Source: Pseudomonadales bacterium (GTDB lineage Bacteria; Pseudomonadota; Gammaproteobacteria; Pseudomonadales; DC-out160). From it: a stretch of DNA of 64,000 nt. The stretch's first letter is position 1. Each line of letters begins with the position of its first letter. Below the pieces are notes generated by a model, which saw nothing but the letters and a program-made list of their open reading frames with translations, was not told the DNA's origin and did no database searches. The stretch is from the NCBI GenBank assembly GCA_019090455.1, contig JAHRWA010000026.1, forward strand, positions 1,431 through 65,430, in the 5' to 3' direction. Both the position numbers and the translations under genes were made by a program. Positions 39,384 through 54,799 of the stretch are shown here, in pieces.

Positions 39384-40412
39384 TTAATCCCATAATAAGG
39401 TCATGAATAGGGCTCTTTTCTCTTTCGAGGTATCTCTATGGGAAAGGTATTTTACATGCTCTTCCAGTGTAGCATCAGGTCGCAACTCAATGCTCCATAG
39501 TGGGTTGATTTCATTGGGTATCATGGAGTAGCGAATATCGATAATGCGATTCTCATGATGAGGGTCTTTCGCAATATATCCATTAGAAAACCAGCGAAAA
39601 CGCTCAATATCCTTTGCTTGTTGAGAGTTTTTATCCAGCCATAGAAAGTCTTCTGACAAATCCAGTTTTTCTAATTTATCGCCAGGGTAAAATCGGGCTT
39701 CTTCTGCTTTTTGAAATAATCCTATTCGAACAGCGTCGACATGAAAATGCGTTTCGGTTTCATAGACTATCTTCCACAGTACAATATTGCCAAAGCTTGG
39801 TTTTGCCTCAAGGGAAAGTATGTTATCTGATGCTTTACCATTGGTTGAGTTTATTCTATGTTGCTCGGCAATATTCGAGGCACGATGGTTTTGAATTAGC
39901 CCCAAGGAGGGGTAAAGCAATATCCAAATCCAGGCGAATCGTATTATTCTAGGGTCTCTTTTTCTTGCTGTTAGAATTACGGCCAACACAAGAGGGAGAG
40001 TATAAACTGGATCAATGACGGATACGGTATTCCATGCGATTCGTTCGTCACTAAAGGGCCAAAGTAAAAGAGTCCCGTAAGTTGTGCAGGAATCGATTAG
40101 TGCGTGGGTGGCATATCCTAATAGACAATATAAATACGTTTGTTTGAACTTAAGATCCCAGCGCTTTCCTAAGAATTTTTGAATTACAATTGCGCAGAGC
40201 AGAGCTCCAAATGGAATAAATATAAGCGAATGCGTAAACTGCCGATGGTATTCTAAAAAGAGTAAAGGATCTGTTGACGATCGAATTAATACATCTAAGT
40301 CTGCACTCATTCCCGCCACTGCGCCTACCATGGCAGCTTTTTTTAAGTTTTTTCGTTTTGATATTGCTTGGGGTGCGGCTGCACCTAATACTGCTTGGGT
40401 AATGGGGTCCAT
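39384..40412 (-). CDS. Membrane-bound metal-dependent hydrolase (YdjM/DUF457 family)
   Basis: Track ORF is 39384..40538. An internal ATG at 40412 gives MDPITQAVLGAA, the usual family start. The family-typical H...H...D pattern appears as HRQFTHSLIF and HALIDSCT. This start also removes the overlap with the gene at 40509. Confidence 0.7.
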   Translation of the reverse strand: MDPITQAVLGAAAPQAISKRKNLKKAAMVGAVAGMSADLDVLIRSSTDPLLFLEYHRQFTHSLIFIPFGALLCAIVIQKFLGKRWDLKFKQTYLYCLLGYATHALIDSCTTYGTLLLWPFSDERIAWNTVSVIDPVYTLPLVLAVILTARKRDPRIIRFAWIWILLYPSLGLIQNHRASNIAEQHRINSTNGKASDNILSLEAKPSFGNIVLWKIVYETETHFHVDAVRIGLFQKAEEARFYPGDKLEKLDLSEDFLWLDKNSQQAKDIERFRWFSNGYIAKDPHHENRIIDIRYSMIPNEINPLWSIELRPDATLEEHVKYLSHRDTSKEKRALFMTLLWD

Positions 40413-40508
40413 AATACGATGGTTCTGCTGTTGTGATAGTGGTAATGACGGTGTTGATATTTGAATAGCTAAAGGTTTTTCATTAATAAATAGGAAGAAT
40501 ATATCACA

Positions 40509-41444
40509 ATGAATGGTATAGCCCATTCCCCAATTCATGAAATGGTCTTCGCGGGTAGGCGTTTTTTTCTAAAAAGGGATGATTTGCTGTCACCTATTTT
40601 TTGTAGTCCTGCTTTTTCTGGGAATAAGGCTCGGAAATTTCATTATCTGTTGCAAGAAAAGTATTTCAAAATTAAAAAAATAGTCAGTCATGGTTCTTCC
40701 CAGTCCAATTCTCTCTATTCACTCTCGGAACTTGCGAAGTCGAAGAGTTGGGAGTTTGAATTTTATGTGGACCATATCTCGGTGTTTTTAAAAAATAATC
40801 CAGCTGGGAATTATCAAGGGGCTTTGGCGAACGGTGCCAAGATTATTTCTTTGGAATCTGAGGAGCATAATAGAGAGGAACGCGCAGGTTGGATGCAGGC
40901 TTATCTTCAGGATGAAATTATGCCTCACGAAGAAAATGCACTGTTTATATCGGAAGGAGGCCGCGGTATTGATGCCGAATTGGGGGTAAAGCGATTGGCC
41001 GACGAAATACGACGATGGTCTCAGAAGGAAGGTGTTAAAAAATTGAAAGTGGCACTCCCATCAGGTACCGGCACAACGGCATTGTATTTGCAAAAACACT
41101 TGGATTTTGAAGTGTTGACTTGCGCGTGCGTAGGGGGAGAGGAATATCTAGAAAAACAATTTTCTGAATTATCTTCGGACAGTAGAGCTCATCCAACTAT
41201 TTTACCTGCGCGCAAGAAATATCATTTTGGAAAGCTGTATCGGGAGTTCTTTTCTATATGGAATGAGTTGAATGCTCAATGTGGGATCGAGTTCGATCTG
41301 CTTTATGATCCGTTAGGTTGGCTCACTTTATTAGATCATCTTGACCGGGTACGTCTTCAAGATTGGGATGTTATTTATATACATCAGGGAGGGTTGTTGG
41401 GTAACGCAACTATGTTGCCACGCTACCAACGTAAATTTGGTTAA
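40509..41444 (+). CDS. PLP-dependent enzyme, ACC deaminase / D-cysteine desulfhydrase family
   Basis: FLKRDDLLSP...FSGNKARKF contains the PLP-lysine context. A glycine-rich LPSGTGTT loop is present. The start (40509 or 40542) is uncertain. Confidence 0.7.
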   Translation: MNGIAHSPIHEMVFAGRRFFLKRDDLLSPIFCSPAFSGNKARKFHYLLQEKYFKIKKIVSHGSSQSNSLYSLSELAKSKSWEFEFYVDHISVFLKNNPAGNYQGALANGAKIISLESEEHNREERAGWMQAYLQDEIMPHEENALFISEGGRGIDAELGVKRLADEIRRWSQKEGVKKLKVALPSGTGTTALYLQKHLDFEVLTCACVGGEEYLEKQFSELSSDSRAHPTILPARKKYHFGKLYREFFSIWNELNAQCGIEFDLLYDPLGWLTLLDHLDRVRLQDWDVIYIHQGGLLGNATMLPRYQRKFG

Positions 41445-41491: not shown

Positions 41492-41761
41492 CTAAACAGG
41501 TTCGGGTTGTGGTGCTTGGCGTTGAATGGCTTCTGGTTTCGCTGGAGCTTGTGGCTGCTGAGGTCGGCTATTGCTATTACCTAAGGTAATGTGCTTCGGT
41601 CCAGCTAGGCTTTGTTGTCCACTGACGCCAGAGTTTATGTATTCAATTTCACCGCCACTTTCTAGGAAAGCTTGAGTTTGATCTCTGATTGATAAGGATG
41701 TTTCAGTGGAGGGACTCTTTTTAGGTGTACTTGGTCTTGTATTGCTGGGTTTAGAAGCCAT
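41492..41761 (-). CDS. Small Ser/Pro/Gln-rich protein of unknown function
   Basis: Track ORF is 41492..41824. An ATG at 41761 gives MASKPSNTRP. A conserved-looking core AFLESGGEIEYINSGVSG is flanked by low-complexity tails. No confident family assignment. Confidence 0.45.
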   Translation of the reverse strand: MASKPSNTRPSTPKKSPSTETSLSIRDQTQAFLESGGEIEYINSGVSGQQSLAGPKHITLGNSNSRPQQPQAPAKPEAIQRQAPQPEPV

Positions 41762-41964
41762 GTAGAGGAGCCTTAAATTTGCTATGCGGTTGAGCATTGT
41801 ACACAAGCGGGTATGTAGGTACAAGTTGTCTATATGTTGTGCTGTTTTTTGCAGGCTTTATGCTTGCAATTCACGCAAAAAATAGTCTCATTTATGCGGG
41901 TTTTCTTGGGGGAATTTAATTTGTACTTTTCGCCATATGTGCCCGAAATAGCAAGGAATATTCG

Positions 41965-42171: not shown

Positions 42172-42378
42172 ATGTCTACAGTTACCGGTACAGTTAAATG
42201 GTTCAATGAAGCTAAAGGTTTTGGCTTCATCGAGCAAGAATCTGGCCCTGATGTATTTGCTCATTTTAGTGCTATTTCAGCTACAGGATTCAAAACTCTA
42301 ACTGAAGGTCAAAAAGTTCAGTTTACTGTTACTCAAGGACAAAAAGGTCCTCAAGCAGAGAACATCGTACCTCTCTGA
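42172..42378 (+). CDS. Cold-shock protein, CspA family
   Basis: [15 protein letters not shown] (RNP1) and VFAHFS (RNP2). Length is 68 aa. Confidence 0.95.
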
Positions 42379-43705: not shown

Positions 43706-45697
43706 TCAAAGGGAAAGCCAATGATCTAGCTTTACTGTTAATTCATCCAGATCAATGGGCTTGGGTATATAGTCATCCATTCCTGATTCGATGCACCGCT
43801 CTCGATCAAGTGTCGTTGAATTAGCGGTCACCGCTATTATGGGGACTTTTCTAATGCTAGATTTAGCATTTCTAATGATTTTTGTTGCTTCAAACCCATC
43901 CATGACTGGCATTTGGCAATCCATGAGAATGATATCGACTTCTGTTTTTTCTATTTCCACAATTGCCTCTTCGCCATTACCTGCAACTACCACATTCAAT
44001 CCGTATTTTTCAGCAAACTTTCTTTCTACGATAAGATTGACTGGGTTGTCTTCCACTATCAATATGGTTTTTGATGAAATGTCGATTGGCTGGTGTGATG
44101 TTACAATCGACGTGTTTGTCTGTTTGTCGATTTGAAGAGGGATTTCCAGCTTTGCTATTGTGCCGTGATCTTCTTGCGAAGATATGTGGATCGAACCTTT
44201 CATCATTTGTAGCAATGACTGGCAGAAAGTCAGTCCTATTCCTAGACCACTAAAGCGCCGCGTTGAATTATCTTCAAGCTGCCTAAAAAGTTGGAATATT
44301 TTTTCTAGCTGATCATTATCAATGCCAATCCCAGTATCTTCAACTGTGATTTTTAATATCATGAAATTATCAGTTTTAGTTGCTCTGTCTAATTTTGACT
44401 TCAGTTTGATGTGCCCATGATGCGTAAACTTAACGGCATTATCGATTAGATGTTCAATGACACGTGTGAGTTGAGCGGGATCACCAATGAAATTGTCTGT
44501 TAGATCGGACTCTATTTTAACTTCAAAAGACAAAGCTCGGTTATCTGATTTCTGTCTTGCTTTTGTTACAATATTGTTTAGAACTTTGGTTAGAGAGAAT
44601 GGCTTATTATCAAGTTTTAAAGTGCCGGCGATGGCTTCGGTGAGGATCAATATACTCTCAACAAGATCACATAGATCTGACAATGAGTTACTTGCCGTTG
44701 AAAGTAGTTCAGCTTGTTCGGGTGGTAGCTGTTGGTCATGCTGCATAAGGTATAAAGCGCCTTGGGCACCATTCAACGGCGTTCTCAGTTCATGATTTAT
44801 TATGGTAAGAAAAGCGTCTTTTATCTCATTACTCTGTGACAGTTTTTTTAGGGATGACCGTAGCTCTTTGGTGCGTTGTTTAACGACCTCTTCCAAAGAG
44901 TCTTGATATAATTTCAATTGTAAGTGTATCTTCACTCGTGCCAGCAGTAGAGGTACGTTGATTGGCTTCATAATATAGTCAACACCGCCAACGCTAAAGC
45001 CTTCTTCTTCTGCGCAACTCATATTTTCTGATGTCACGAATATAACAGGGATTAATTCCGTCTCTGCCATGCTTTTTAATTGACGGCAGGTATCGAAGCC
45101 ATTAATCCCTGGCATGAGTACATCTAGTATAATGAGCTGCGGGCGTACCTCCTGTGCTAATGCAATGCCTTGGTTTCCCGTACTCGCGCTTCTCACTTGG
45201 TATCCTGCATCAGAGAGAGAGGTTTCTAATAATAAAACCATATCGGGCGAGTCATCAATAATGAGGATATCGACGGCCTCTTCGCAAGCGAGATCTTTGC
45301 TATGTTGTAATTCCAGTTCTTGCCTACGGGAATGTACGGCAGCCTCTACCTTTATCATGAGTAGAGCATTATCGGTGGGTACAGCCAAGCAGTCGAAGGC
45401 TCCCAGTAATAAACCTTTGACAGCATTTGAGGTTTCAGAGAAATCGGTGTTGAGGAATATGATTGGTATATTTCTTATGAGTGCAATTTGTTTGACGGAA
45501 TTCATAAAGGCATAACCGTCAAATTGTGGATTAACAATATTTAAGACGATGGTTTCAGGTAATAACTGCTGTGCTAGCTGAAGGCCACTGTTGCCGCTGT
45601 CGGCACAATATATTGTATAGTGAGCCGAAAGAATCGCAGAAAATTGCTGTTGGTTTTCCTTGTTGTCATCAATAATGAGTATTGACATTACGCTCAA
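43706..45697 (-). CDS. Hybrid sensor histidine kinase with two N-terminal receiver domains (the first degenerate) and one C-terminal receiver
   Basis: REC1 is ILIIDDNK...IVLNIVNPQFDG, with Asn where the phospho-Asp is expected. REC2 is ILIIDDSP...IILDVLMPGINGFD. H-box is NHELRTPLNG and G-boxes are DTGIGI and GLGIGL. REC3 is ILIVEDNP...ILMDCQMPVMDGFE. There is no TM segment. Confidence 0.85.
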   Translation of the reverse strand: MSVMSILIIDDNKENQQQFSAILSAHYTIYCADSGNSGLQLAQQLLPETIVLNIVNPQFDGYAFMNSVKQIALIRNIPIIFLNTDFSETSNAVKGLLLGAFDCLAVPTDNALLMIKVEAAVHSRRQELELQHSKDLACEEAVDILIIDDSPDMVLLLETSLSDAGYQVRSASTGNQGIALAQEVRPQLIILDVLMPGINGFDTCRQLKSMAETELIPVIFVTSENMSCAEEEGFSVGGVDYIMKPINVPLLLARVKIHLQLKLYQDSLEEVVKQRTKELRSSLKKLSQSNEIKDAFLTIINHELRTPLNGAQGALYLMQHDQQLPPEQAELLSTASNSLSDLCDLVESILILTEAIAGTLKLDNKPFSLTKVLNNIVTKARQKSDNRALSFEVKIESDLTDNFIGDPAQLTRVIEHLIDNAVKFTHHGHIKLKSKLDRATKTDNFMILKITVEDTGIGIDNDQLEKIFQLFRQLEDNSTRRFSGLGIGLTFCQSLLQMMKGSIHISSQEDHGTIAKLEIPLQIDKQTNTSIVTSHQPIDISSKTILIVEDNPVNLIVERKFAEKYGLNVVVAGNGEEAIVEIEKTEVDIILMDCQMPVMDGFEATKIIRNAKSSIRKVPIIAVTANSTTLDRERCIESGMDDYIPKPIDLDELTVKLDHWLSL

Positions 45698-45871: not shown

Positions 45872-47281
45872 GTGTTAAATTATCGTAAGTTCCATTTATT
45901 ACAGAGTATTTTCTCTTGGTGTAGTCCTATCGTTATTTTTCTGCGGTCCACTGTTCTTGTGTTTGTTTGTACGCTTATGATATTTGGGACTCTTTTGACG
46001 TTGAGCGCCTCGGCGCTTGTGGTTGCAGAAGAAGACGCAAGCAGCCTGTTCAGTGAATTAAAAAAGCAGGTGTATCAGATACGGGTCATTGACCTAGCTT
46101 CCGATGATAAAAGTGCGATTGGATCGGGGTTTTTGATTAGTGACACGGGATTGATAGCAACTAATTTCCATGTTGTTTCTTCCTATGTTCATGAGCCCTC
46201 AAAATATCGATTGGAGTATGTCGATTACTTGGGGGGAACGGGCTCTATCGAATTGCAGAGCATTGATGTCGTTCATGATCTCGCCATTGGTAAAATATCA
46301 ATTGGTAAAATAGCGATAGGAAAAATCGAGATTGATAAAGCTGTAACGGACATTTCGAATACACAAGGTTCAAATTTCTTTTCGTTCAATTTGGGCGAAA
46401 TGTCACAAGGCGAGCGTCTCTATTCCGTGGGGAACCCCCTTGATCTAGGCATGACAATTATTGAAGGCATCTACAACGGACTGATAAAAAAATCACGTTA
46501 TAAGAAAATACTTTTTTCAGGTTCTTTGAATTCAGGTATGAGCGGCGGCCCCGCCTTGGACTCAAAAGGGCAAGTGATAGGAATCAATGTCGCTAAAGGG
46601 AGTGAACAATTAAGCTTCTTGGTTCCCGTAGAATACCTTCATGTGCTCCTAATAAAATTGGCTGAGAAGGGGCCTGAAAAAGATTTTGAGCAGTCGATTA
46701 CAGAAGCACTAACGAATGATCAACGTCGTTTTTACGCTGAACTATTAGGAAGGGATTGGCAGAAAGAGAAGTTTATGGAAGCGATACTACCGACAAAAAT
46801 CAGTGATAAGCTGGAGTGCTGGGGCCATACGGAAGACAAAGAGGAGTATCTCTATAAGGGTGTTCATCAGCATTGTCGCTCATCAGATGATATTTATTTA
46901 AGTGGTACTTTATCCACTGGCCATTTCTCCTATAGCTATGAATGGAATGAGTCCACGCAATTGAACAGCGCTCAGTTTTACAATGTACTGGAGAGGCGGT
47001 TTGATCACCGTGGATTGAATAATATATACGAAGAAAAGGATGGGACCAATTTCTCGTGCCATACCGAATTCGTGACGTTGAGTCAGCATGAATGGAAAAT
47101 TTCTAGTTGCTTGCGTGGATATAAAATGTATCGTGGATTGTACGATGCTAGTTTTGTGATGGCTTCAGTGGATACCAGGGATAAGGGGCTGATTATTAGG
47201 GGTGCTGCCGCGGGTTTGAGTAAAGAGAATGTTCAGGGAATGATAAGGAAATTCTTAGAGGCCGTTGAATGGACACGCTAG
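45872..47281 (+). CDS. Trypsin-like (S1/S1C-type) serine protease with N-terminal TM/signal segment and a Cys-containing C-terminal domain of unknown function
   Basis: Catalytic contexts are ATNFHVV (His), VHDLAIGKI (Asp) and NSGMSGGPALDSKGQVIGINV (Ser). A hydrophobic N-terminal segment is present. The start is GTG, so the exact start is uncertain. Confidence 0.8.
   Translation: MLNYRKFHLLQSIFSWCSPIVIFLRSTVLVFVCTLMIFGTLLTLSASALVVAEEDASSLFSELKKQVYQIRVIDLASDDKSAIGSGFLISDTGLIATNFHVVSSYVHEPSKYRLEYVDYLGGTGSIELQSIDVVHDLAIGKISIGKIAIGKIEIDKAVTDISNTQGSNFFSFNLGEMSQGERLYSVGNPLDLGMTIIEGIYNGLIKKSRYKKILFSGSLNSGMSGGPALDSKGQVIGINVAKGSEQLSFLVPVEYLHVLLIKLAEKGPEKDFEQSITEALTNDQRRFYAELLGRDWQKEKFMEAILPTKISDKLECWGHTEDKEEYLYKGVHQHCRSSDDIYLSGTLSTGHFSYSYEWNESTQLNSAQFYNVLERRFDHRGLNNIYEEKDGTNFSCHTEFVTLSQHEWKISSCLRGYKMYRGLYDASFVMASVDTRDKGLIIRGAAAGLSKENVQGMIRKFLEAVEWTR
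46283..46342 (+). repeat. In-frame 15-bp tandem repeat (4 units) inside the protease gene, encoding (x-I-G/D-K-I/A)4
   Basis: Units are gccattggtaaaata, tcaattggtaaaata, gcgataggaaaaatc and gagattgataaagct. The protein reads AIGKISIGKIAIGKIEIDKA, directly after the catalytic Asp context. Confidence 0.8.
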
Positions 47282-48240
47282 TCATTCGTTTGGGCTTACG
47301 TCACGCGAGAATAAGTGAATTCGTAAAGGTAAAAAGCGACACTTTTAGTGTGGGGCGCGCGTTGAAAAACGATCTGGTCCTGTCTGATCCCTACATTGCA
47401 CCCGAGCAATTGCGCTTTAGTCGTGATGAGTCAGGTTGGTCTATGGAGATCATGGATTTTATTAATCCTATTGTTGTGAATGATGAGCCTGTTGAGAAGA
47501 AGGATGCGATCGTAAAAGTACATTCTGGTGATTGCCTCGTACTGGGTCGAACCCATATGGCACTTTTTTCCGAGGATCATCCTAGTGATGCGACGCGGAC
47601 TATGGTGCTGTCACGTTGGTTGCACCATTCGGTTTTGCGACGAGTGATTCCATTGTTAATGTTGGCAGTGGCCTGTGCCATTACGGGCTTGAGTGAATAT
47701 TCTCACTTGGCCACGGAAATGAAATTGGGTGATGTCGCAATGAGCAGTTTGATTGTTGCATTGGCAGCACTAGGTTGGTCGAGCCAATGGGCTCTTGCGG
47801 GTCGAATATTACATCATCATGCCCATTTTTTTGCGCAATTATTTTACACCTCCTCGATATTAGCCGCCATTTGTTTGTTGGGGTTGGTGGAGGGCTATGT
47901 GGAGTACATGCTTAATAGCAATGTGATCGAATCCACTTTTATTCAAATTTTTCTGTTTGGTCTTATTACTGCATTGCTTAAATTTAATCTCTCTTATGCA
48001 ACACACATACATCGTAAGTGGACAGTTTCATTTGCGGTGACGACATTTGGGGCCGTGGTCATCTTTAGTCTATTTCATTTCAATGCGAGAGACTTTAAGG
48101 CGACACCGGAATACTCCGCTGTACTTCGGCCTCCGGTGGTGAAGTTGTTAGGCAATCAAAGTCTGGATGAATTTATGATGGATTTCGAAGCCCAGTTTGA
48201 ACTTGTTGATTCCGAAATAGACGACTGGAAAAGCAAATAG
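47269..48240 (+). CDS. FHA-domain protein with C-terminal polytopic membrane domain
   Basis: The N-terminal FHA-like segment is FSVGRALKNDLVLSDPYIAPEQLRF...VNDEPV...GDCLVLGRTHMALF, followed by about 5 hydrophobic helices. The ATG overlaps the protease stop codon by 13 nt. Confidence 0.75.
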   Translation: MDTLVIRLGLRHARISEFVKVKSDTFSVGRALKNDLVLSDPYIAPEQLRFSRDESGWSMEIMDFINPIVVNDEPVEKKDAIVKVHSGDCLVLGRTHMALFSEDHPSDATRTMVLSRWLHHSVLRRVIPLLMLAVACAITGLSEYSHLATEMKLGDVAMSSLIVALAALGWSSQWALAGRILHHHAHFFAQLFYTSSILAAICLLGLVEGYVEYMLNSNVIESTFIQIFLFGLITALLKFNLSYATHIHRKWTVSFAVTTFGAVVIFSLFHFNARDFKATPEYSAVLRPPVVKLLGNQSLDEFMMDFEAQFELVDSEIDDWKSK

Positions 48241-48306: not shown

Positions 48307-51300
48307 ATGAGCCGAGAATCCATTGTCATTAGAGGCGCCCGCCAAAATAATCTTAAAAATCTAGATTTAGATCTGCCTACCAATGAGCTTATTGTCGTCA
48401 CCGGTGTGAGTGGATCTGGTAAGTCGACTTTAGCTTTTGACACCATTTATGCAGAAGGGCAACGTCGTTACGTGGAAACGTTTTCCGCTTATGCTCGACA
48501 GTTTTTAGATAGGATGGATAAACCCAATGTCGATAGTATACAAGGGATTCCACCGGCTATAGCGATCAACCAATCTAATCCAGTACGCACTTCCCGTTCC
48601 ACTGTTGGGACGATGACCGAGCTAAATGATTATATAAAGCTTTTGTTTGCGCGACTCTCCCGATTGTTCTGTCATCAGTGTGATCGTGAGGTATCAAGAG
48701 ATTCAGCTCAGAGTATTGTCAATTCAATCTATGAATTAGCGGAAACTGATCAGCGGTGCATTATTTGTTTGCCGATTAAAGTACCGGATAATTTCACTGA
48801 CGACGAAGTTGTCCAAATGCTCAATCAGCAAGGCTATACGCGAATTCATAAGCGAACCAAAAAAAAATTAGAAGTGATACAAGACCGATTGGTGCTGAGA
48901 GAAAGCAATCGCGAAAGATTGACCGAGTCCATTGAAGCAGCACTGCAACATGGGAATGGACATGTGTTGATATACCCGCTGGATGCGGAAAAAAATAGCG
49001 GAGAACCCTGGCGCTATTCCAGTCATCATCATTGCTCACACTGCGAAATTGATTATGCCGATCCGACACCCAGTTTATTTTCTTTTAATTCTGCTATCGG
49101 AGCCTGCGAAGAATGTCGCGGTTTTGGACGTATTATTGGCGTGGATTATGGTTTGGTTATACCGGATGAATCCAAATCCTTAAGGGAAGGCGCGATTAAG
49201 CCTTTTCAAACTCCTAGCAACGTGGAGATTCAAGATGCTCTTATCTCTTTTGCTCAAAAGAAAAAAGTACCGCTAGATACACCGTGGAGGAAACTCACTA
49301 AAAAACAGCAAGCCTGGATCATAGAGGGAGAGGGCCGTTGGTCTGATGGAGTGTGGTTTGGCATAGACGGTTTTTTTCGTTGGTTGGAAGCGAGAGCTTA
49401 CAAAATGCATGTTCGCGTCCTGCTTTCCAAATACCGTTCCTATACCACTTGCCCTGAGTGTCACGGAGCGAGATTGAAGCCCAGCGCTTTATGGTGGCGG
49501 ATTGATGATCTCAATGTGCATGACATTATGCAGTTACCACTAGAGCAAGGCGCAAAATTCTTTAAGCAAGTAAATCTGCCTGCCCAGTTTGATGAGGCCG
49601 GTGAACTGCTGTTGACCGAGGTGCGGTCACGTTTGGATTATTTGTTGGAAGTGGGTTTAGGCTATTTAACCTTAGACCGACAATCTCGAACTTTGAGTGG
49701 TGGTGAAGTACAACGGATTAATTTGACGACTGCTCTCGGGACTTCTTTAGTCAATACTTTGTTTGTTCTGGATGAGCCTAGTATTGGTTTGCACCCAAGA
49801 GATATTAACCGTCTCGTACTGGTATTACATCGCCTACGGGATGCAGGCAATACGTTGTTAGTAGTTGAGCACGATCCGCAAGTCATTATGGCAGCAGATC
49901 GTGTGTTAGATATTGGACCGGGTCCGGGAAAGCTAGGGGGAGAGATTGGTTTTTTTGGTACGCCGAAGGCACTCATGCGTAATCGAAAATCGCTTACCGC
50001 TCAATATCTCTCGGGTAAAAAGTCCGTGACTTTCGAGGTCCATAAACCGGGTTTTTCCCCGACCAACAACACACTAAAGATCGTCGGCGCGAGTGAGCAT
50101 AATCTAAAAAATATCGATATTGATATCCCATTAAATCGCTTGGTGTGTATTACCGGTGTTAGTGGTTCGGGTAAGTCGACACTCATGCGAGATGTGCTTT
50201 ATCCCGCACTCTGCAAAATAAAAGGAAAAACCATAGAAACCCCCGGTGCTCACCATAGCATTAAAGGGCATGATCATATTGATGATGTGGTGTTAGTGGA
50301 TCAAAGTGCGATTGGTAAAACCACACGATCGATTCCGGCTACCTATGTAGGGGCATTCGATGCCATCAGGAAATTATTTTTGGTGACACCTCTGGCAAAG
50401 GAGCGAGGTTACACTGCAGGTACATTTAGCTTTAATTCGGGTAATGGCCGTTGTCCTACTTGTACGGGTAATGGTTTCGAGCACGTGGAGATGCAGTTCC
50501 TGAGTGATGTGTACTTACGTTGTGCGGATTGCAATGGAAAACGATATCGAAATGAAATATTGGAAGTGACCTTGCTAGGCGCAAAAGCGACTGAGGAAAA
50601 TAAGTCAGATTCTAATAAAATCGTTGTCTCTGAAGCAATGTCTATTGCGGATGTGTTGGAGCTTACCGTCACTGAAGCCCTGTCTTTTTTCGCGGATGCT
50701 CCCGATGTGATAAGCAGTTTACAGCCGTTAGCTGACGTTGGTCTTCAATATGTACAGCTAGGGCAGTCGGTGCCGACACTGAGTGGTGGTGAGGCGCAAC
50801 GTCTTAAGTTAGCAGGTTATCTGGCAAAGAATGCGATGGCGCAGAAAAAAGCACTGGCTAAGAAAAAGGCGCAAGATAAAAAGAAATATCTAGTTAAGCC
50901 AAAAACATCCACGAAGAAAAGCACGGCTAAGAATAAAACAGCACAGGTTAAGGACAATGTTCCAGCGGAAAAAGGAACTTTATTTCTATTTGACGAGCCT
51001 ACGACGGGTTTGCACTTCGATGATATTGCTACCTTGATGAAAGCGTTTCAACAGCTGATTCAAGCCGGGCATTCTCTCTTGGTGATAGAGCATAATATAG
51101 ATGTGATTCGAGCCGCAGACTGGATCATTGATATTGGTCCAGAAGGGGGTGACGGTGGCGGGCAACGTATCGCCGAGGGGAGTCCTCAGGCGGTGGCGAA
51201 AACGAAGACTCATACTGGGATTGCTTTGCAAGACTACTTTAGTTCTTTAGATCAAAAGCAGGGGGGAGCGCAAAAGGTGGCTGAACTGGCGGCCACTTAC

Positions 51301-54030
51301 GCCACGGGCAATTCAAATTATGAACAGAAAAAACCAATGCCAAGAAAGCGTGAGATTCAGATTCATCATGCGAGAGAGCACAATCTAAAAAACATTGACA
51401 TAAATATTCCTCTCGATAAATTTACCGTGATCACAGGGGTGAGTGGCAGTGGGAAAAGCACAGTCGCTTTTGATATCGTTTTTGGGGAAGGGCAACGTCG
51501 CTATCTTGAATCCTTAAATGCCTACGCAAGACAGTTTATTCAAGCCGCTTCTCGCCCTGACGTAGATGCGATACACGGTATACCCCCTACCGTCGCCATT
51601 GAGCAACGTACCAGTCGAGGCGGTCGAAAAAGTACAGTGGCCACGCTTACCGAAATTTATCACTTTATGCGGTTGCTCTATGTGAAATTAGGCACTCAAC
51701 ATTGCCCCCATTGTGATGAAGCTATTGAGCCGCAAACATCCGCGGCGATACTTGCTCGATTATTAAAAGACTTTCGTGGCCAGAAGATAGAGCTGCTTGC
51801 ACCTCAGGTGGTCGCGCGAAAGGGCATATATAAGGAGCTAGCCAAGTGGGCTAGCGACAAAGGGTTTGAACGATTGCGAGTGGATGGAGAATATCAGCAA
51901 ACGGATCCTTGGCCAGTCTTGGATCGATATAAGGAGCATGATATTGAACTTCTCGTTGGCAGCTGTGAGGTGACGGCTAAGAATGAAGTCCACTTAATGG
52001 GGCTGCTGGAACAGGCATTAAAACTGGGCAATGAAATTGTTATTGTTTCACCTATTGGATCTGAGAAAACAAGAAATAAAATTAAAGCTAAGAATAAAAA
52101 AGAGACCCTATTTTCCACTTCTCGTTCATGTCCTGGATGTGGTCAAGGCTTCGATGAGCTGGATCCGCGCTTGTTCTCCTATAACTCCAAACACGGTTGG
52201 TGCGCACATTGTTTTGGAACGGGTGTGCTCATCAAGGATTTTGATGAAGAACAAACTGGGGAGGAGGAAGAATGGCGACTTGAAGACGATAACGGTTCTT
52301 CTAATGTCAGCTCTTCTAAAACAAGCTCTTCAAAAAAGGGGGTGACGATAGCGGATAGGGATAAGCACTGTCATCATTGTGATGGCCAACGATTGAATGA
52401 CACTGCACTAGCGGTGCGCTTCCGTTCGCAGTCAATTGCCCAGCTCGCCAATTACACAGTGGATCATAGTAACCTTTGGTTTTCGAAGCTGAAGTTAACC
52501 AAAAAGGAAGCCGAGATCGCAAAGGATCTTATGGTTGAATTAACAGGACGGCTGCAGTTTTTGAATAAAGTCGGTCTGGGATACTTAACCTTAGATCGGG
52601 CCGCTCCTACGTTGAGTGGTGGCGAGGCACAACGGATACGCCTAGCGTCTCAGTTAGGGTCGAATCTACAAGGGGTTTGTTATATTTTGGATGAACCCAC
52701 TATTGGCCTTCATGCCAGAGATAATCGCCGACTCATCACGACGTTACGCGAATTGCAACAGCAGGGTAATACCGTTCTAGTAGTAGAGCACGATGAAGAT
52801 ACGATCCAGGAGGCGGACTATATTATCGATATGGGACCGGGTGCTGGGATAAATGGGGGAGAAGTGGTTGCTCAAGGGACTTTGCCGCAGCTGATAAAAA
52901 ACAAAAAATCGATCACAGGGCAGTTTGTATCGAACCCGCTTCGCCACCCGATGAAGGATCTTGTGGATCAGGCGTTACGCCAGAGATGGGATAGCGAAAA
53001 AATGTCAATCCTAGGGGCGTCGCAAAACAATCTGGCCAATGTGGATGTGGATATTCCTTTGCGCCGCTTGGTGTGTGTATCCGGAGTCAGTGGTAGTGGC
53101 AAAAGCACACTGATTCGCTCAGTGCTACAACGAAATCTTCGTCCTATCATTAACGTGCCTGGAAAAGGCGCAAAGAGAAAGACAGTGCGTTGGCAAGGTT
53201 GTGAGGATATTGTCGGTTGGGGTAGCATTCGACGAATACTCGAAGTGGATCAAACGCCCATAGGCAAAACGCCGCGTTCTTGTCCGGCGACTTATATCGG
53301 CATTTGGGATCAAATACGCAAATTGTTTGCGGGAACAGTGGATGCCCGACTACGGGGTTATAAACCCGCACGGTTTTCTTTTAATACCGGTGATGGTCGG
53401 TGCGGTACCTGTGGTGGTCATGGCATGCGTAAGGTAGAAATGAATTTTTTGCCAGACGTAAGGGTTGAGTGTGAAGTCTGCCATGGCTGGCGGTTCAATG
53501 ATGAGACGTTAACCGTGCGTTACAAAGATAAGCACATCGGAGATGTGCTTATGATGAATGTGGAGGAGGCGTCTACCTATTTTTCAGAAGTCGCTTCTAT
53601 TCATCATGCGTTGCAATTATTGCAAGATGTGGGTTTGGGTTACTTAACCTTGGGGCAACAAAGTCCCACCTTAAGTGGGGGCGAGGCGCAACGAATAAAA
53701 TTAGTTGCTGAGTTGGCAAAGGCAAAGATGAATATAAAATCCATAGGCCAGCACAATCTCTATATTCTTGATGAGCCCACTGTGGGATTGCATATGGCAG
53801 ATGTGGAAAAGCTAGTACGAGTGCTGCATCGATTGGTTAACGCGGGCAACTCTGTCATCGTAATCGAACATAATCTAGATGTGATAGCGGAAGCGGACTG
53901 GATAATTGATATGGGACCGGAAGGTGGCAGCAAAGGGGGTAAAGTTATTGCTCAAGGGGCACCCGAAACGATGTGTAAGAGAAAACGATCGTATACGGGA
54001 GAGTATTTAAAGCAGTTGTTAGAGAGATAG
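48307..54030 (+). CDS. Tandem-duplicated UvrA-like ABC ATPase (two complete UvrA-like units fused, 4 nucleotide-binding modules)
   Basis: Single uninterrupted frame of 1907 aa from the ATG at 48307. The UvrA N-terminal signature RGARQNNLKNLDL...GVSGSGKSTLAFDTIYAEGQRRYVETFSAYARQF recurs at about residue 1015 (HHAREHNLKNIDI...GVSGSGKSTVAFDIVFGEGQRRYLESLNAYARQF). There are four GVSGSGKST Walker A sites, four LSGGE signature motifs and multiple CxxC zinc modules. Confidence 0.9.
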   Translation: MSRESIVIRGARQNNLKNLDLDLPTNELIVVTGVSGSGKSTLAFDTIYAEGQRRYVETFSAYARQFLDRMDKPNVDSIQGIPPAIAINQSNPVRTSRSTVGTMTELNDYIKLLFARLSRLFCHQCDREVSRDSAQSIVNSIYELAETDQRCIICLPIKVPDNFTDDEVVQMLNQQGYTRIHKRTKKKLEVIQDRLVLRESNRERLTESIEAALQHGNGHVLIYPLDAEKNSGEPWRYSSHHHCSHCEIDYADPTPSLFSFNSAIGACEECRGFGRIIGVDYGLVIPDESKSLREGAIKPFQTPSNVEIQDALISFAQKKKVPLDTPWRKLTKKQQAWIIEGEGRWSDGVWFGIDGFFRWLEARAYKMHVRVLLSKYRSYTTCPECHGARLKPSALWWRIDDLNVHDIMQLPLEQGAKFFKQVNLPAQFDEAGELLLTEVRSRLDYLLEVGLGYLTLDRQSRTLSGGEVQRINLTTALGTSLVNTLFVLDEPSIGLHPRDINRLVLVLHRLRDAGNTLLVVEHDPQVIMAADRVLDIGPGPGKLGGEIGFFGTPKALMRNRKSLTAQYLSGKKSVTFEVHKPGFSPTNNTLKIVGASEHNLKNIDIDIPLNRLVCITGVSGSGKSTLMRDVLYPALCKIKGKTIETPGAHHSIKGHDHIDDVVLVDQSAIGKTTRSIPATYVGAFDAIRKLFLVTPLAKERGYTAGTFSFNSGNGRCPTCTGNGFEHVEMQFLSDVYLRCADCNGKRYRNEILEVTLLGAKATEENKSDSNKIVVSEAMSIADVLELTVTEALSFFADAPDVISSLQPLADVGLQYVQLGQSVPTLSGGEAQRLKLAGYLAKNAMAQKKALAKKKAQDKKKYLVKPKTSTKKSTAKNKTAQVKDNVPAEKGTLFLFDEPTTGLHFDDIATLMKAFQQLIQAGHSLLVIEHNIDVIRAADWIIDIGPEGGDGGGQRIAEGSPQAVAKTKTHTGIALQDYFSSLDQKQGGAQKVAELAATYATGNSNYEQKKPMPRKREIQIHHAREHNLKNIDINIPLDKFTVITGVSGSGKSTVAFDIVFGEGQRRYLESLNAYARQFIQAASRPDVDAIHGIPPTVAIEQRTSRGGRKSTVATLTEIYHFMRLLYVKLGTQHCPHCDEAIEPQTSAAILARLLKDFRGQKIELLAPQVVARKGIYKELAKWASDKGFERLRVDGEYQQTDPWPVLDRYKEHDIELLVGSCEVTAKNEVHLMGLLEQALKLGNEIVIVSPIGSEKTRNKIKAKNKKETLFSTSRSCPGCGQGFDELDPRLFSYNSKHGWCAHCFGTGVLIKDFDEEQTGEEEEWRLEDDNGSSNVSSSKTSSSKKGVTIADRDKHCHHCDGQRLNDTALAVRFRSQSIAQLANYTVDHSNLWFSKLKLTKKEAEIAKDLMVELTGRLQFLNKVGLGYLTLDRAAPTLSGGEAQRIRLASQLGSNLQGVCYILDEPTIGLHARDNRRLITTLRELQQQGNTVLVVEHDEDTIQEADYIIDMGPGAGINGGEVVAQGTLPQLIKNKKSITGQFVSNPLRHPMKDLVDQALRQRWDSEKMSILGASQNNLANVDVDIPLRRLVCVSGVSGSGKSTLIRSVLQRNLRPIINVPGKGAKRKTVRWQGCEDIVGWGSIRRILEVDQTPIGKTPRSCPATYIGIWDQIRKLFAGTVDARLRGYKPARFSFNTGDGRCGTCGGHGMRKVEMNFLPDVRVECEVCHGWRFNDETLTVRYKDKHIGDVLMMNVEEASTYFSEVASIHHALQLLQDVGLGYLTLGQQSPTLSGGEAQRIKLVAELAKAKMNIKSIGQHNLYILDEPTVGLHMADVEKLVRVLHRLVNAGNSVIVIEHNLDVIAEADWIIDMGPEGGSKGGKVIAQGAPETMCKRKRSYTGEYLKQLLER

Positions 54031-54059: not shown

Positions 54060-54092
54060 CGCTCCCGTTATTGTTGTGAAATAACGGGAGCG
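54060..54092. terminator. Hairpin terminator between convergent genes (best on the minus strand)
   Basis: CGCTCCCGTTAT (54060-54071) pairs with ATAACGGGAGCG (54081-54092). On the minus strand it is followed by TTTTCTTTTTC. Confidence 0.7.
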
Positions 54093-54130: not shown

Positions 54131-54799
54131 TTAGGCTCTACTGCTCTTTTGCTTTTTTCTTGCAAGACCAAGTGCAATTAATCCTAATCCAAATAGTGAT
54201 AGTGTTTCGGGCTCAGGAACTGAAGCGATATTCACATTTGAATTGAGGAATTCAACACGAAGACCAGCAGGGTTGCCAGTAGCTTGAGCAGAGTTGATTA
54301 AAGTAAACTCGAGTGTATTCAAGCCTGCGATAAAGCTACCACCCAAATCTGAAAATGTAGCCCAGCTGGTGAATGAAGCCGACGAGTTGCTTAACGCATC
54401 ACCGTTTAGGGATAGAGTGCCGCTATTATCCGTTGCCCAACGTCCGTCAAATGATGCACTAGTTGCATCGTATCCAGTCAAATCAAAGGTGAGAGACCAC
54501 GTATAAGTACCGTTGGATACAGGGTCATACGATGTGTTAGCAGATGGGCCAGGTGTAAGCCACTGAGAAGTTGCATTATTAGGGATCCATGGGCCTTGGG
54601 TTGGCCAACCTGTGCCCTCGTAACCATTTGCACCAAAAGCAGTGGTGTCAGCACCTGAATAGCTCAGTGCGTAGTTTGAATCGATAGTACCGGCAGTAGA
54701 ACTTTCGCCAGTATTGTATAGGTCAGAAATGGGTATAGCTGACGCGTTAATTGAAATTAACGACGTCAATGTTGCTGCAGCAAGAAGTTTAAAATTCAT
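54131..54799 (-). CDS. PEP-CTERM sorting-domain secreted protein
   Basis: Signal peptide, a Ser/Thr/Gly/Asn-rich body, and C-terminal VPEPETLSLFGLGLIALGLARKKQ (PEP motif, TM helix and basic tail). Confidence 0.85.
   Translation of the reverse strand: MNFKLLAAATLTSLISINASAIPISDLYNTGESSTAGTIDSNYALSYSGADTTAFGANGYEGTGWPTQGPWIPNNATSQWLTPGPSANTSYDPVSNGTYTWSLTFDLTGYDATSASFDGRWATDNSGTLSLNGDALSNSSASFTSWATFSDLGGSFIAGLNTLEFTLINSAQATGNPAGLRVEFLNSNVNIASVPEPETLSLFGLGLIALGLARKKQKSSRA

Follow-up and report, generated by a model that had tools for sequence, protein, structure and literature searches.

A double-length UvrA from a marine Pseudomonadales bacterium with its canonical UvrB-binding domain in one half and its insertion domain in the other

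A stretch of 64,000 nt from contig JAHRWA010000026.1 (referred to, at its full length, as the window), which belongs to the metagenome-assembled genome (MAG) of a marine Pseudomonadales bacterium, carries a gene for a UvrA-like protein in which two UvrA units follow each other head to tail within a single chain. Canonical UvrA is a homodimer of 940-aa chains. The central observation on the fused protein is a complementary asymmetry between its two units, with a canonical UvrB-binding domain found in unit 2 alone and the insertion domain in unit 1 alone. In itself, the gene is a normal representative of a large family of double-length UvrA proteins, which is already annotated in the databases and spread over hundreds of bacterial species. 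Judging from the sequences, we favour, with some reserve, an interpretation where the protein probably serves as an auxiliary, single-chain damage sensor of nucleotide excision repair (NER) with one canonical docking site for UvrB.

Reality and extent of the fused gene

The reading frame, described as uninterrupted in an initial annotation of this DNA, indeed runs through 1907 codons from its ATG with no internal stop (Table 1). Unit 2 begins at about aa 1013 (nt 51343), in agreement with the start near nt 51350 proposed there, and the segments quoted from unit 2 (LLAPQVVARKGIYKEL) and from unit 1 (CIICLPIKVPDNFTDDEVVQMLNQQGYTRIHKR) were both found in their places. The encoded protein is 100% identical to the NCBI entry [quoted passage not shown]. 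Its two units are 32–42% identical to each other. The presence of two complete UvrA units in one chain, with halves that have diverged, is confirmed and real.

An assembly or sequencing artefact, fusing two adjacent uvrA-like genes, might be suspected from the unusual length of the protein, the only point in its favour, and its probability is negligible. The identical 1907-aa product is present on 5 contigs from different samples, and a protein search returned at least 120 full-length orthologues (1835–2055 aa, 63–82% identity to the window protein), so that the continuity of the frame is well backed. The orthologues come from hosts that include Exilibacterium, Maricurvus, Marinimicrobium, Gilvimarinus, Saccharospirillum, Motiliproteus and Pseudohongiella. 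Related loci, at least 598 in number (see below), also occur in isolate genomes and on complete replicons. Together, these data refute the artefact.

Conservation figures given below were computed over 120 full-length orthologues, the best matches in the protein search. For structure prediction with AlphaFold2 (AF2) and for the search of cluster representatives the two halves were analysed one by one.

Table 1. Features of the fused uvrA gene and of its surroundings in the window (positions in nt)
Feature	Position	Strand	Remarks
CDS, double-length UvrA	48307..54030	+	1907 aa plus stop; complete
Alternative start TTG	48304	+	one codon 5' of the ATG
Unit 1 (aa 1-950)	48307..51156	+	full UvrA unit; variant UvrB-binding-like domain, insertion domain retained
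Walker A, ATPase site 1	48403..48426	+	motif
Unit 1 zinc module 1 and compact UvrB-binding-like domain (aa 118-250)	48658..49056	+	Pfam, alignments, AF2
Unit 1 insertion (DNA-binding) domain (aa 271-381)	49117..49449	+	between both CxxC pairs of zinc module 2
Walker A, other three sites	50155-50178, 51436-51459, 53083-53106	+	motif
Unit 1 variable insertion (aa 757-779)	50575..50643	+	after the C-terminal zinc module
K-rich loop (aa 843-889)	50833..50973	+	unit 1, between signature II and Walker B II
Inter-unit linker (aa 951-1012)	51157..51342	+	orthologue comparison
Unit 2 (aa 1013-1907)	51343..54027	+	class I-like UvrA unit; canonical UvrB-binding domain, without insertion domain
Unit 2 zinc module 1 and canonical UvrB/Mfd-binding domain (aa 1129-1282)	51691..52152	+	Pfam, alignments, AF2
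Unit 2 insertion-domain scar (aa 1303-1354)	52213..52368	+	between the retained CxxC pairs of zinc module 2
13-bp GC-rich hairpin	54060..54092		between uvrA-like and convergent PEP-CTERM gene; consensus scan
PEP-CTERM sorting-signal protein	54131-54799	-	convergent with the uvrA-like gene
Trypsin-like serine protease (469 aa) and FHA / YscD-cytoplasmic-domain membrane protein (323 aa)	45872-48240	+	13-nt overlap
Hybrid histidine kinase, three receiver domains (663 aa)	43706-45697	-	divergent from the protease/FHA/uvrA-like run
Cold-shock-domain gene	42172-42378	+	called in identical ENA contig (L002 3866-4072)
SutA-RBD-domain gene	41492-41797	-	called in identical ENA contig (L002 3186-3491)
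YdjM-family inner membrane protein	39384-40538	-	

Complementary asymmetry of the two units

Each unit contains the two ABC ATPase modules and three zinc modules that define the UvrA superfamily. Walker A motifs (GVSGSGKS) occur at aa 33, 617, 1044 and 1593, LSGGE signatures at aa 463, 825, 1436 and 1789, and Walker B motifs as DEPS at aa 489 and as DEPT at aa 896, 1462 and 1822, together with four H-loops; of the 13 CxxC motifs in the chain, 12 pair into six zinc modules, three per unit. These positions agree with the initial count of two Walker A, two signature and two Walker B motifs per unit, accompanied by CxxC zinc modules. The Walker A lysine, the Walker B Asp-Glu, the LSGGE signature and the H-loop histidine of all four sites are invariant in 120/120 orthologues, as are the zinc-module cysteines of all six modules, and the engine of the protein is therefore not decaying. 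The UvrA equivalog models NF001503 and TIGR00630 give 2114 and 2046 bits (cut-offs 1147 and 730), each score being the sum over two units.

When aligned separately to the known classes of UvrA, both halves prove nearer to class I, with 770–850 bits to class I structures versus 436–554 bits to those of class II. Unit 1 shares 39% identity with E. coli UvrA over aa 4–975, scores 783 bits to 2r6f and has a mean predicted local distance difference test (pLDDT) of 73 in its AF2 model. For unit 2, which is 41% identical to E. coli UvrA and scores 848 bits to 9gxk, the best fold match is 3uwx_A, the UvrA of a UvrA-UvrB complex, with a template modelling (TM) score of 0.78, and the class I fold is matched with TM scores of 0.73–0.78. 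Class II UvrA proteins are defined by a missing zinc module 1 and a missing UvrB-binding domain (PMC9328131), whereas both units of the window protein retain zinc module 1 together with a UvrB-binding or binding-like domain.

It is in the peripheral domains that the units differ. The Pfam profile UvrA_inter matches unit 2 with 92.7 bits over profile positions 1–106 of 109 (132 bits for E. coli UvrA). Unit 2 aligns without gaps to class I structures through an RKG motif and a hairpin which are both absent in unit 1, its binding domain matches the isolated interaction-domain structures 4dfc_B and 3fpn_A, and the AF2 model is confident in this region (pLDDT 76–90). In unit 1, the same profile reaches only 44.5 bits, and the loss of the 15-residue hairpin is seen as a 15-aa gap versus the class I structures. 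The initial annotation was thus right in that unit 2 keeps the UvrB-binding region and that the corresponding part of unit 1 is shorter and divergent. It also took the latter for a decaying domain, and this does not hold: mean identity among orthologues is 0.57 for the unit 1 domain versus 0.59 for that of unit 2, and the variant domain is confidently folded in AF2 (pLDDT 82–91), so “decay” is the wrong word for a domain that is conserved like its counterpart. The variant domain may bind UvrB weakly, may bind another partner, or may be structural.

The reverse is found for the insertion domain. Unit 1 retains 112 residues between the alignment anchors where E. coli UvrA has 126, this segment is helical and confident in AF2, and Pfam UvrA_DNA-bind matches it with 59 bits, partially, over profile positions 1–65 of 110. 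A scan of the window protein gave no match to this profile in unit 2, where only 53 residues separate the same anchors and 56 residues the starts of the two zinc-module-2 CxxC motifs. What is left is disordered (pLDDT 29–37) and consists of an acidic FDEEQTGEE..W motif followed by a Ser-rich extension. The motif, in the form FDEEQ(T/S)GEE..W, is conserved in the subfamily, the whole segment has 47 aa here versus a median of 28 aa, and the Ser-rich tail is private to the window protein. The acidic and Ser-rich stretch (aa ~1306–1352), at first interpreted as an insertion, is in fact the scar of a deletion that removed about 75 residues of the insertion domain, a loss that had been missed.

In UvrA, it is the two insertion domains that clamp the DNA (PMC12796330). 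The rule that every protomer of a class I UvrA has both peripheral domains is broken here with respect to UvrA_DNA-bind, partial in unit 1 and deleted in unit 2. The asymmetry of dock and clamp emerges consistently from a three-way alignment with E. coli UvrA, from Pfam scans, from structure comparisons of the domains alone and from the AF2 models of the halves.

Variable loops and the inter-unit linker

The K-rich tract of unit 1, situated between signature II and Walker B II, was correctly located in the initial annotation, where it was considered an insertion. A loop in this position is, however, a family-wide feature: it is basic in all orthologues (37% K/R), with a median length of 13 aa and a maximum of 67 aa, and the 47-aa tract of the window protein is a private expansion of this short basic loop. 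AF2 models it as a helix extension followed by disorder at aa 862–886. The loop may add non-specific affinity for DNA; any role of the K-rich tract in DNA or membrane affinity is speculation. An origin of the K-rich and Ser-rich tracts by slippage was considered and dropped, as DNA tandem repeats are absent under either.

A further insertion in unit 1 (aa 757–779), previously overlooked, is found neither in E. coli UvrA nor in unit 2; it varies from 8 to 35 aa among orthologues and has low pLDDT at residues 762–773. The linker between the units has a length of 51–82 aa and a mean identity of 26% among orthologues, and its ends are of low confidence in both AF2 half models. A linker that is long, variable and of low confidence fits an intramolecular pseudo-dimer.

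A widespread family of double-length UvrA proteins

Proteins of this type are well represented in the databases. SEED labels them “Excinuclease ABC subunit A, dimeric form”, and the Cupriavidus literature uses the name uvrA2. Of 600 candidate stretches in species-representative genomes, 598 were confirmed, so that at least 598 related loci exist. The best 80 of these are all full length (about residues 1–1905) with 53–66% identity, and come from gamma- and betaproteobacteria as well as from MAGs of Nitrospirota, Verrucomicrobiia, Thermodesulfobacteriota and Spirochaetaceae. Among these best 80 loci, identity across phyla (MAGs of Nitrospirota, Verrucomicrobiia and Spirochaetaceae) is 55–59% versus 64–66% within the gammaproteobacteria, a small gap that suggests horizontal spread. 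The initial annotation held that long UvrA paralogues are annotated but uncharacterised, which matches the databases and the literature that we searched.

Unit 1 was used as a query against 1.84 billion cluster representatives, and the top 150 matches are almost only double-length proteins. Seventy-one double-length representatives were sorted by the number of residues between anchors shared with E. coli UvrA. The architecture of the window protein is the commonest (34 cases); in 21 each unit keeps both domains, 10 are double class II-like proteins with a length of about 1600 aa, and 6 show other mixes. The asymmetry also recurs in the orthologue from Ralstonia.

In a neighbour-joining tree of the units, the unit-1 sequences form one clade and the unit-2 sequences another, with E. 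coli UvrA nearer to the unit-2 side. As the units fall into separate clades, the tree indicates that a single ancient fusion probably founded the family of the window protein. The unit-2 scars vary between sub-clades in sequence and in length (14–74 residues between the zinc-module-2 CxxC starts), and this variation hints that the insertion domain of unit 2 may have been lost repeatedly and independently, although the tree is rough.

The double class II-like proteins (P0204, P0212-P0214, P0218, P0222, P0234, P0242, P0253 and P0263) belong to another clade than the window family and are without a UvrB-binding domain in both units. Two further proteins, P0134 and P0136 (2334 and 2343 aa), are paired, near-canonical class I units with extra length. 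Fusion of UvrA evidently arose several times.

Unit-1-type proteins exist in unfused form, but these are rare. P0216 (L011 1208-4207) is a stand-alone UvrA of 999 aa with 48% identity to unit 1 from end to end; it is encoded in the interior of a contig, flanked on both sides by unrelated genes, and is either a fission product or a relic of the pre-fusion paralogue. P0158 (~1000 aa) had also been considered as a natural split form but is cut by a contig end.

Function of the fused protein

We propose that an ancient fusion joined two UvrA units head to tail via a flexible linker of about 50–60 residues and that, after the fusion, peripheral domains which had become redundant were lost or remodelled so that the units complement each other. 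The chain would fold back like the UvrA2 dimer, scan DNA and use ATP as UvrA does. The resulting pseudo-dimer would possess four active ATPase sites, one DNA clamp, provided by unit 1, and one canonical UvrB dock, to which unit 2 would contribute its binding domain and unit 1 its signature-II domain. As an auxiliary NER sensor it would load one UvrB, and the organism would carry a canonical uvrA as well. The initial annotation had already seen a covalent pseudo-dimer with specialised halves. This view stands as far as the head-to-tail fusion, the conserved differences between units, their separate clades and the flexible linker are concerned; it erred on the decay and on the acidic insertion and had recognised only half of the asymmetry.

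Several observations weigh against an auxiliary NER sensor that loads a single UvrB. As the unit 1 domain is folded and conserved, it may have kept the ability to bind UvrB, Mfd or some other partner, in which case the idea of one UvrB per chain would be wrong. Candidatus Kinetoplastibacterium crithidii, with a genome of 0.82 Mb, has retained a family member of 1809 aa and of the same architecture, which hints that a fused UvrA can be the working, perhaps the only, UvrA in some lineages. A LexA box, present at uvrA of E. coli, was not found near the start codon of the fused gene, and matches over the whole window stay below chance expectation. Our search of the literature (class III, duplicated or fused UvrA, dimeric form, Burkholderiales uvrA2) returned no functional study of the family.

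The persistence in the Kinetoplastibacterium endosymbiont is also an argument for the alternative that the organism relies on the fused protein alone as its housekeeping UvrA; a covalent dimer would then have taken the place of the canonical gene and would carry all of NER. In favour of this alternative are also the scores of the window protein for both equivalog models, which exceed the curated cut-offs, as well as its four intact ATPase sites and its canonical UvrB-binding domain. Nevertheless, we consider this alternative unlikely. The Ralstonia solanacearum orthologue (1945 aa, 55% identity, colinear with residues 1–1907; named uvrA_2 in several assemblies) is located on the megaplasmid, and two uvrA genes are tabulated for this species (PMC518961 Table 2); in Cupriavidus, a locus on chromosome 2 has 54% identity to the window protein, and in C. 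metallidurans uvrA2 (Rmet_4549) on CHR2 is described as a paralogue of a gene on CHR1 (PMC2864759). Coexistence of the fused gene with a canonical uvrA is thus shown for Ralstonia and Cupriavidus, with the fused copy on a secondary replicon. Each unit of the window protein, moreover, reaches only about 40% identity with E. coli UvrA, the small identity gap between phyla suggests horizontal spread, and the gene neither adjoins ssb nor has a LexA box upstream. On balance, an auxiliary paralogue appears more likely than a sole UvrA.

A role outside NER, similar to that of the class II proteins Ecm16, DrrC and DrUvrA2, is rather improbable. The protein would then be an ATP-driven scanner which removes DNA-bound toxins, or renders them tolerable, without UvrB. 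Such paralogues do exist, as the echinomycin resistance conferred by Ecm16 does not depend on UvrB, UvrC or UvrD (PMC9328131), and some genomes have the fused protein as an additional copy. However, zinc module 1 is retained in both units, the scores of both units are higher for class I structures than for those of class II, the UvrB-binding domain of unit 2 is canonical and conserved in orthologues, and none of the six genomic contexts that were read has a biosynthetic cluster near the gene. Still far less probable is a part in anti-phage defence within a MADS-related system, to which the PADLOC models mad3 and mad8 seem to point with 519 and 249 bits. These cover aa 1021–1539 and 1571–1862, which are the nucleotide-binding domains NBD-I and NBD-II of UvrA, hence only the shared UvrA-like ATPase core, and mad3 and mad8 themselves appear to be a split UvrA-like ATPase. 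A MADS component would be expected in a cluster with the remaining mad genes, a methyltransferase gene among them. The UvrA equivalog score is far higher (2114 bits), the neighbours of the window gene (protease, FHA protein, PEP-CTERM protein) include no other mad or defence gene, and neighbourhoods differ by genus, with a defence island adjoining only in Marinimicrobium. With its partner genes absent, the defence reading was rejected; genes of the UvrA family thus risk being mislabelled as defence genes from single-gene matches in PADLOC.

The auxiliary NER sensor may be taken one step further, to a possible though doubtful proposal. The whole family could be an obligately asymmetric sensor, in which covalent linkage has freed the protomers to divide their labour, one clamp and one dock suffice, and the domain of unit 1 recruits another partner or none. 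Scars that vary in length and sequence across sub-clades support such obligate asymmetry. If the proposal is true, one UvrB and no more would be loaded, on a defined side of the lesion, and the protein would form a natural, genetically fixed UvrA2-UvrB1 complex; it would also offer a direct means to address the old debate over UvrA2B1 versus UvrA2B2 as the working form.

The family represents an unexploited natural experiment for the mechanism of NER. As the protein is a single chain, each of its four ATPase sites could be mutated separately, an option that a homodimer does not offer. Since only a single canonical UvrB-binding domain and a single insertion domain remain, such a protein allows direct tests of protomer asymmetry, of UvrB stoichiometry and of whether two DNA clamps are needed. 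For annotation, the gene should be regarded neither as a housekeeping uvrA nor as a misassembly; current pipelines label this very large family of fused paralogues simply “UvrA”.

Genomic neighbourhood

The fused gene is preceded on the same strand by genes for a trypsin-like protease and an FHA-domain membrane protein; downstream, a hairpin separates it from a convergent PEP-CTERM gene. The protease/FHA pair, which looks like a small signalling or proteolysis module, ends 66 nt 5' of the uvrA-like ATG with no terminator in between. A functional operon tie was nevertheless rejected, as the pair accompanies the fused gene only in assemblies of the same population and not in five other genera. 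The surroundings of the window gene are not kept in Maricurvus, Marinimicrobium, Pseudohongiella, Kinetoplastibacterium or Ralstonia. With a neighbourhood that varies by genus and has no biosynthetic or defence context, the fused uvrA is a stand-alone gene. No second UvrA is encoded in the window. Its GC content (43–48%, flanks 39–45%) is not distinctive, and a foreign composition was discarded.

The hairpin is likely a bidirectional terminator, and the PEP-CTERM protein implies that the organism has an exosortase system. YdjM is a LexA-regulated SOS gene in E. coli; next to the YdjM-family gene of the window no LexA box was found.

In Marinimicrobium sp. C6131 (L005 13657-21541), a defence-like island (AIPR, DUF4420, Z1, HATPase_c_3, DNA methylase) adjoins the fused uvrA immediately on its downstream side; the association is probably coincidental, as the island is absent elsewhere. 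The gene of Candidatus Kinetoplastibacterium crithidii (L007, CP064915.1, 595698-621127) is located among ruvCAB, minCDE, mutL and tsaE.

Comparison with known UvrA systems

With class I UvrA (E. coli; Bst, 2r6f/3uwx; Tma, 3pih; Ct, 9gxk; Mtb, 3zqj), each unit of the window protein shares two ABC modules, three zinc modules and the signature domains. It differs in that 1907 aa with two units in one chain take the place of a homodimer of 940-aa chains, and in that the pseudo-dimer has one canonical UvrB-binding domain and one insertion domain where the class I dimer has two of each; the divergence from E. coli UvrA is also large for a gammaproteobacterial protein. With class II UvrA (D. radiodurans UvrA2, 2vf7; Ecm16, 7sh1; DrrC) it has in common that a paralogous UvrA is able to coexist with a canonical one. 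The class II proteins are, however, of single length and lack zinc module 1, kept in both units here, as well as the UvrB-binding domain.

Chlamydiae possess, as far as is known, only a double-length UvrA, a point in favour of the sole-UvrA alternative, and we take NF001885 / PRK00635 (1809 positions) to be the model of this chlamydial type. Double length is shared, but the window protein scores 1162 bits against a cut-off of 3054, and five other representatives of the family also remain below it; the window family is therefore a separate lineage of fused UvrA.

The closest resemblance is to the type represented by Ralstonia uvrA_2 and Cupriavidus Rmet_4549, which is colinear over 1907 residues at 54–55% identity, has the same order of units, and shows the same asymmetry, in that a strong UvrA_inter match is confined to unit 2 and a UvrA_DNA-bind match to unit 1. 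The window copy differs from it by its private low-complexity expansions (K-rich loop 47 vs median 13, scar 47 vs median 28) and by its chromosomal location, in another neighbourhood, in the MAG of a marine Pseudomonadales bacterium.

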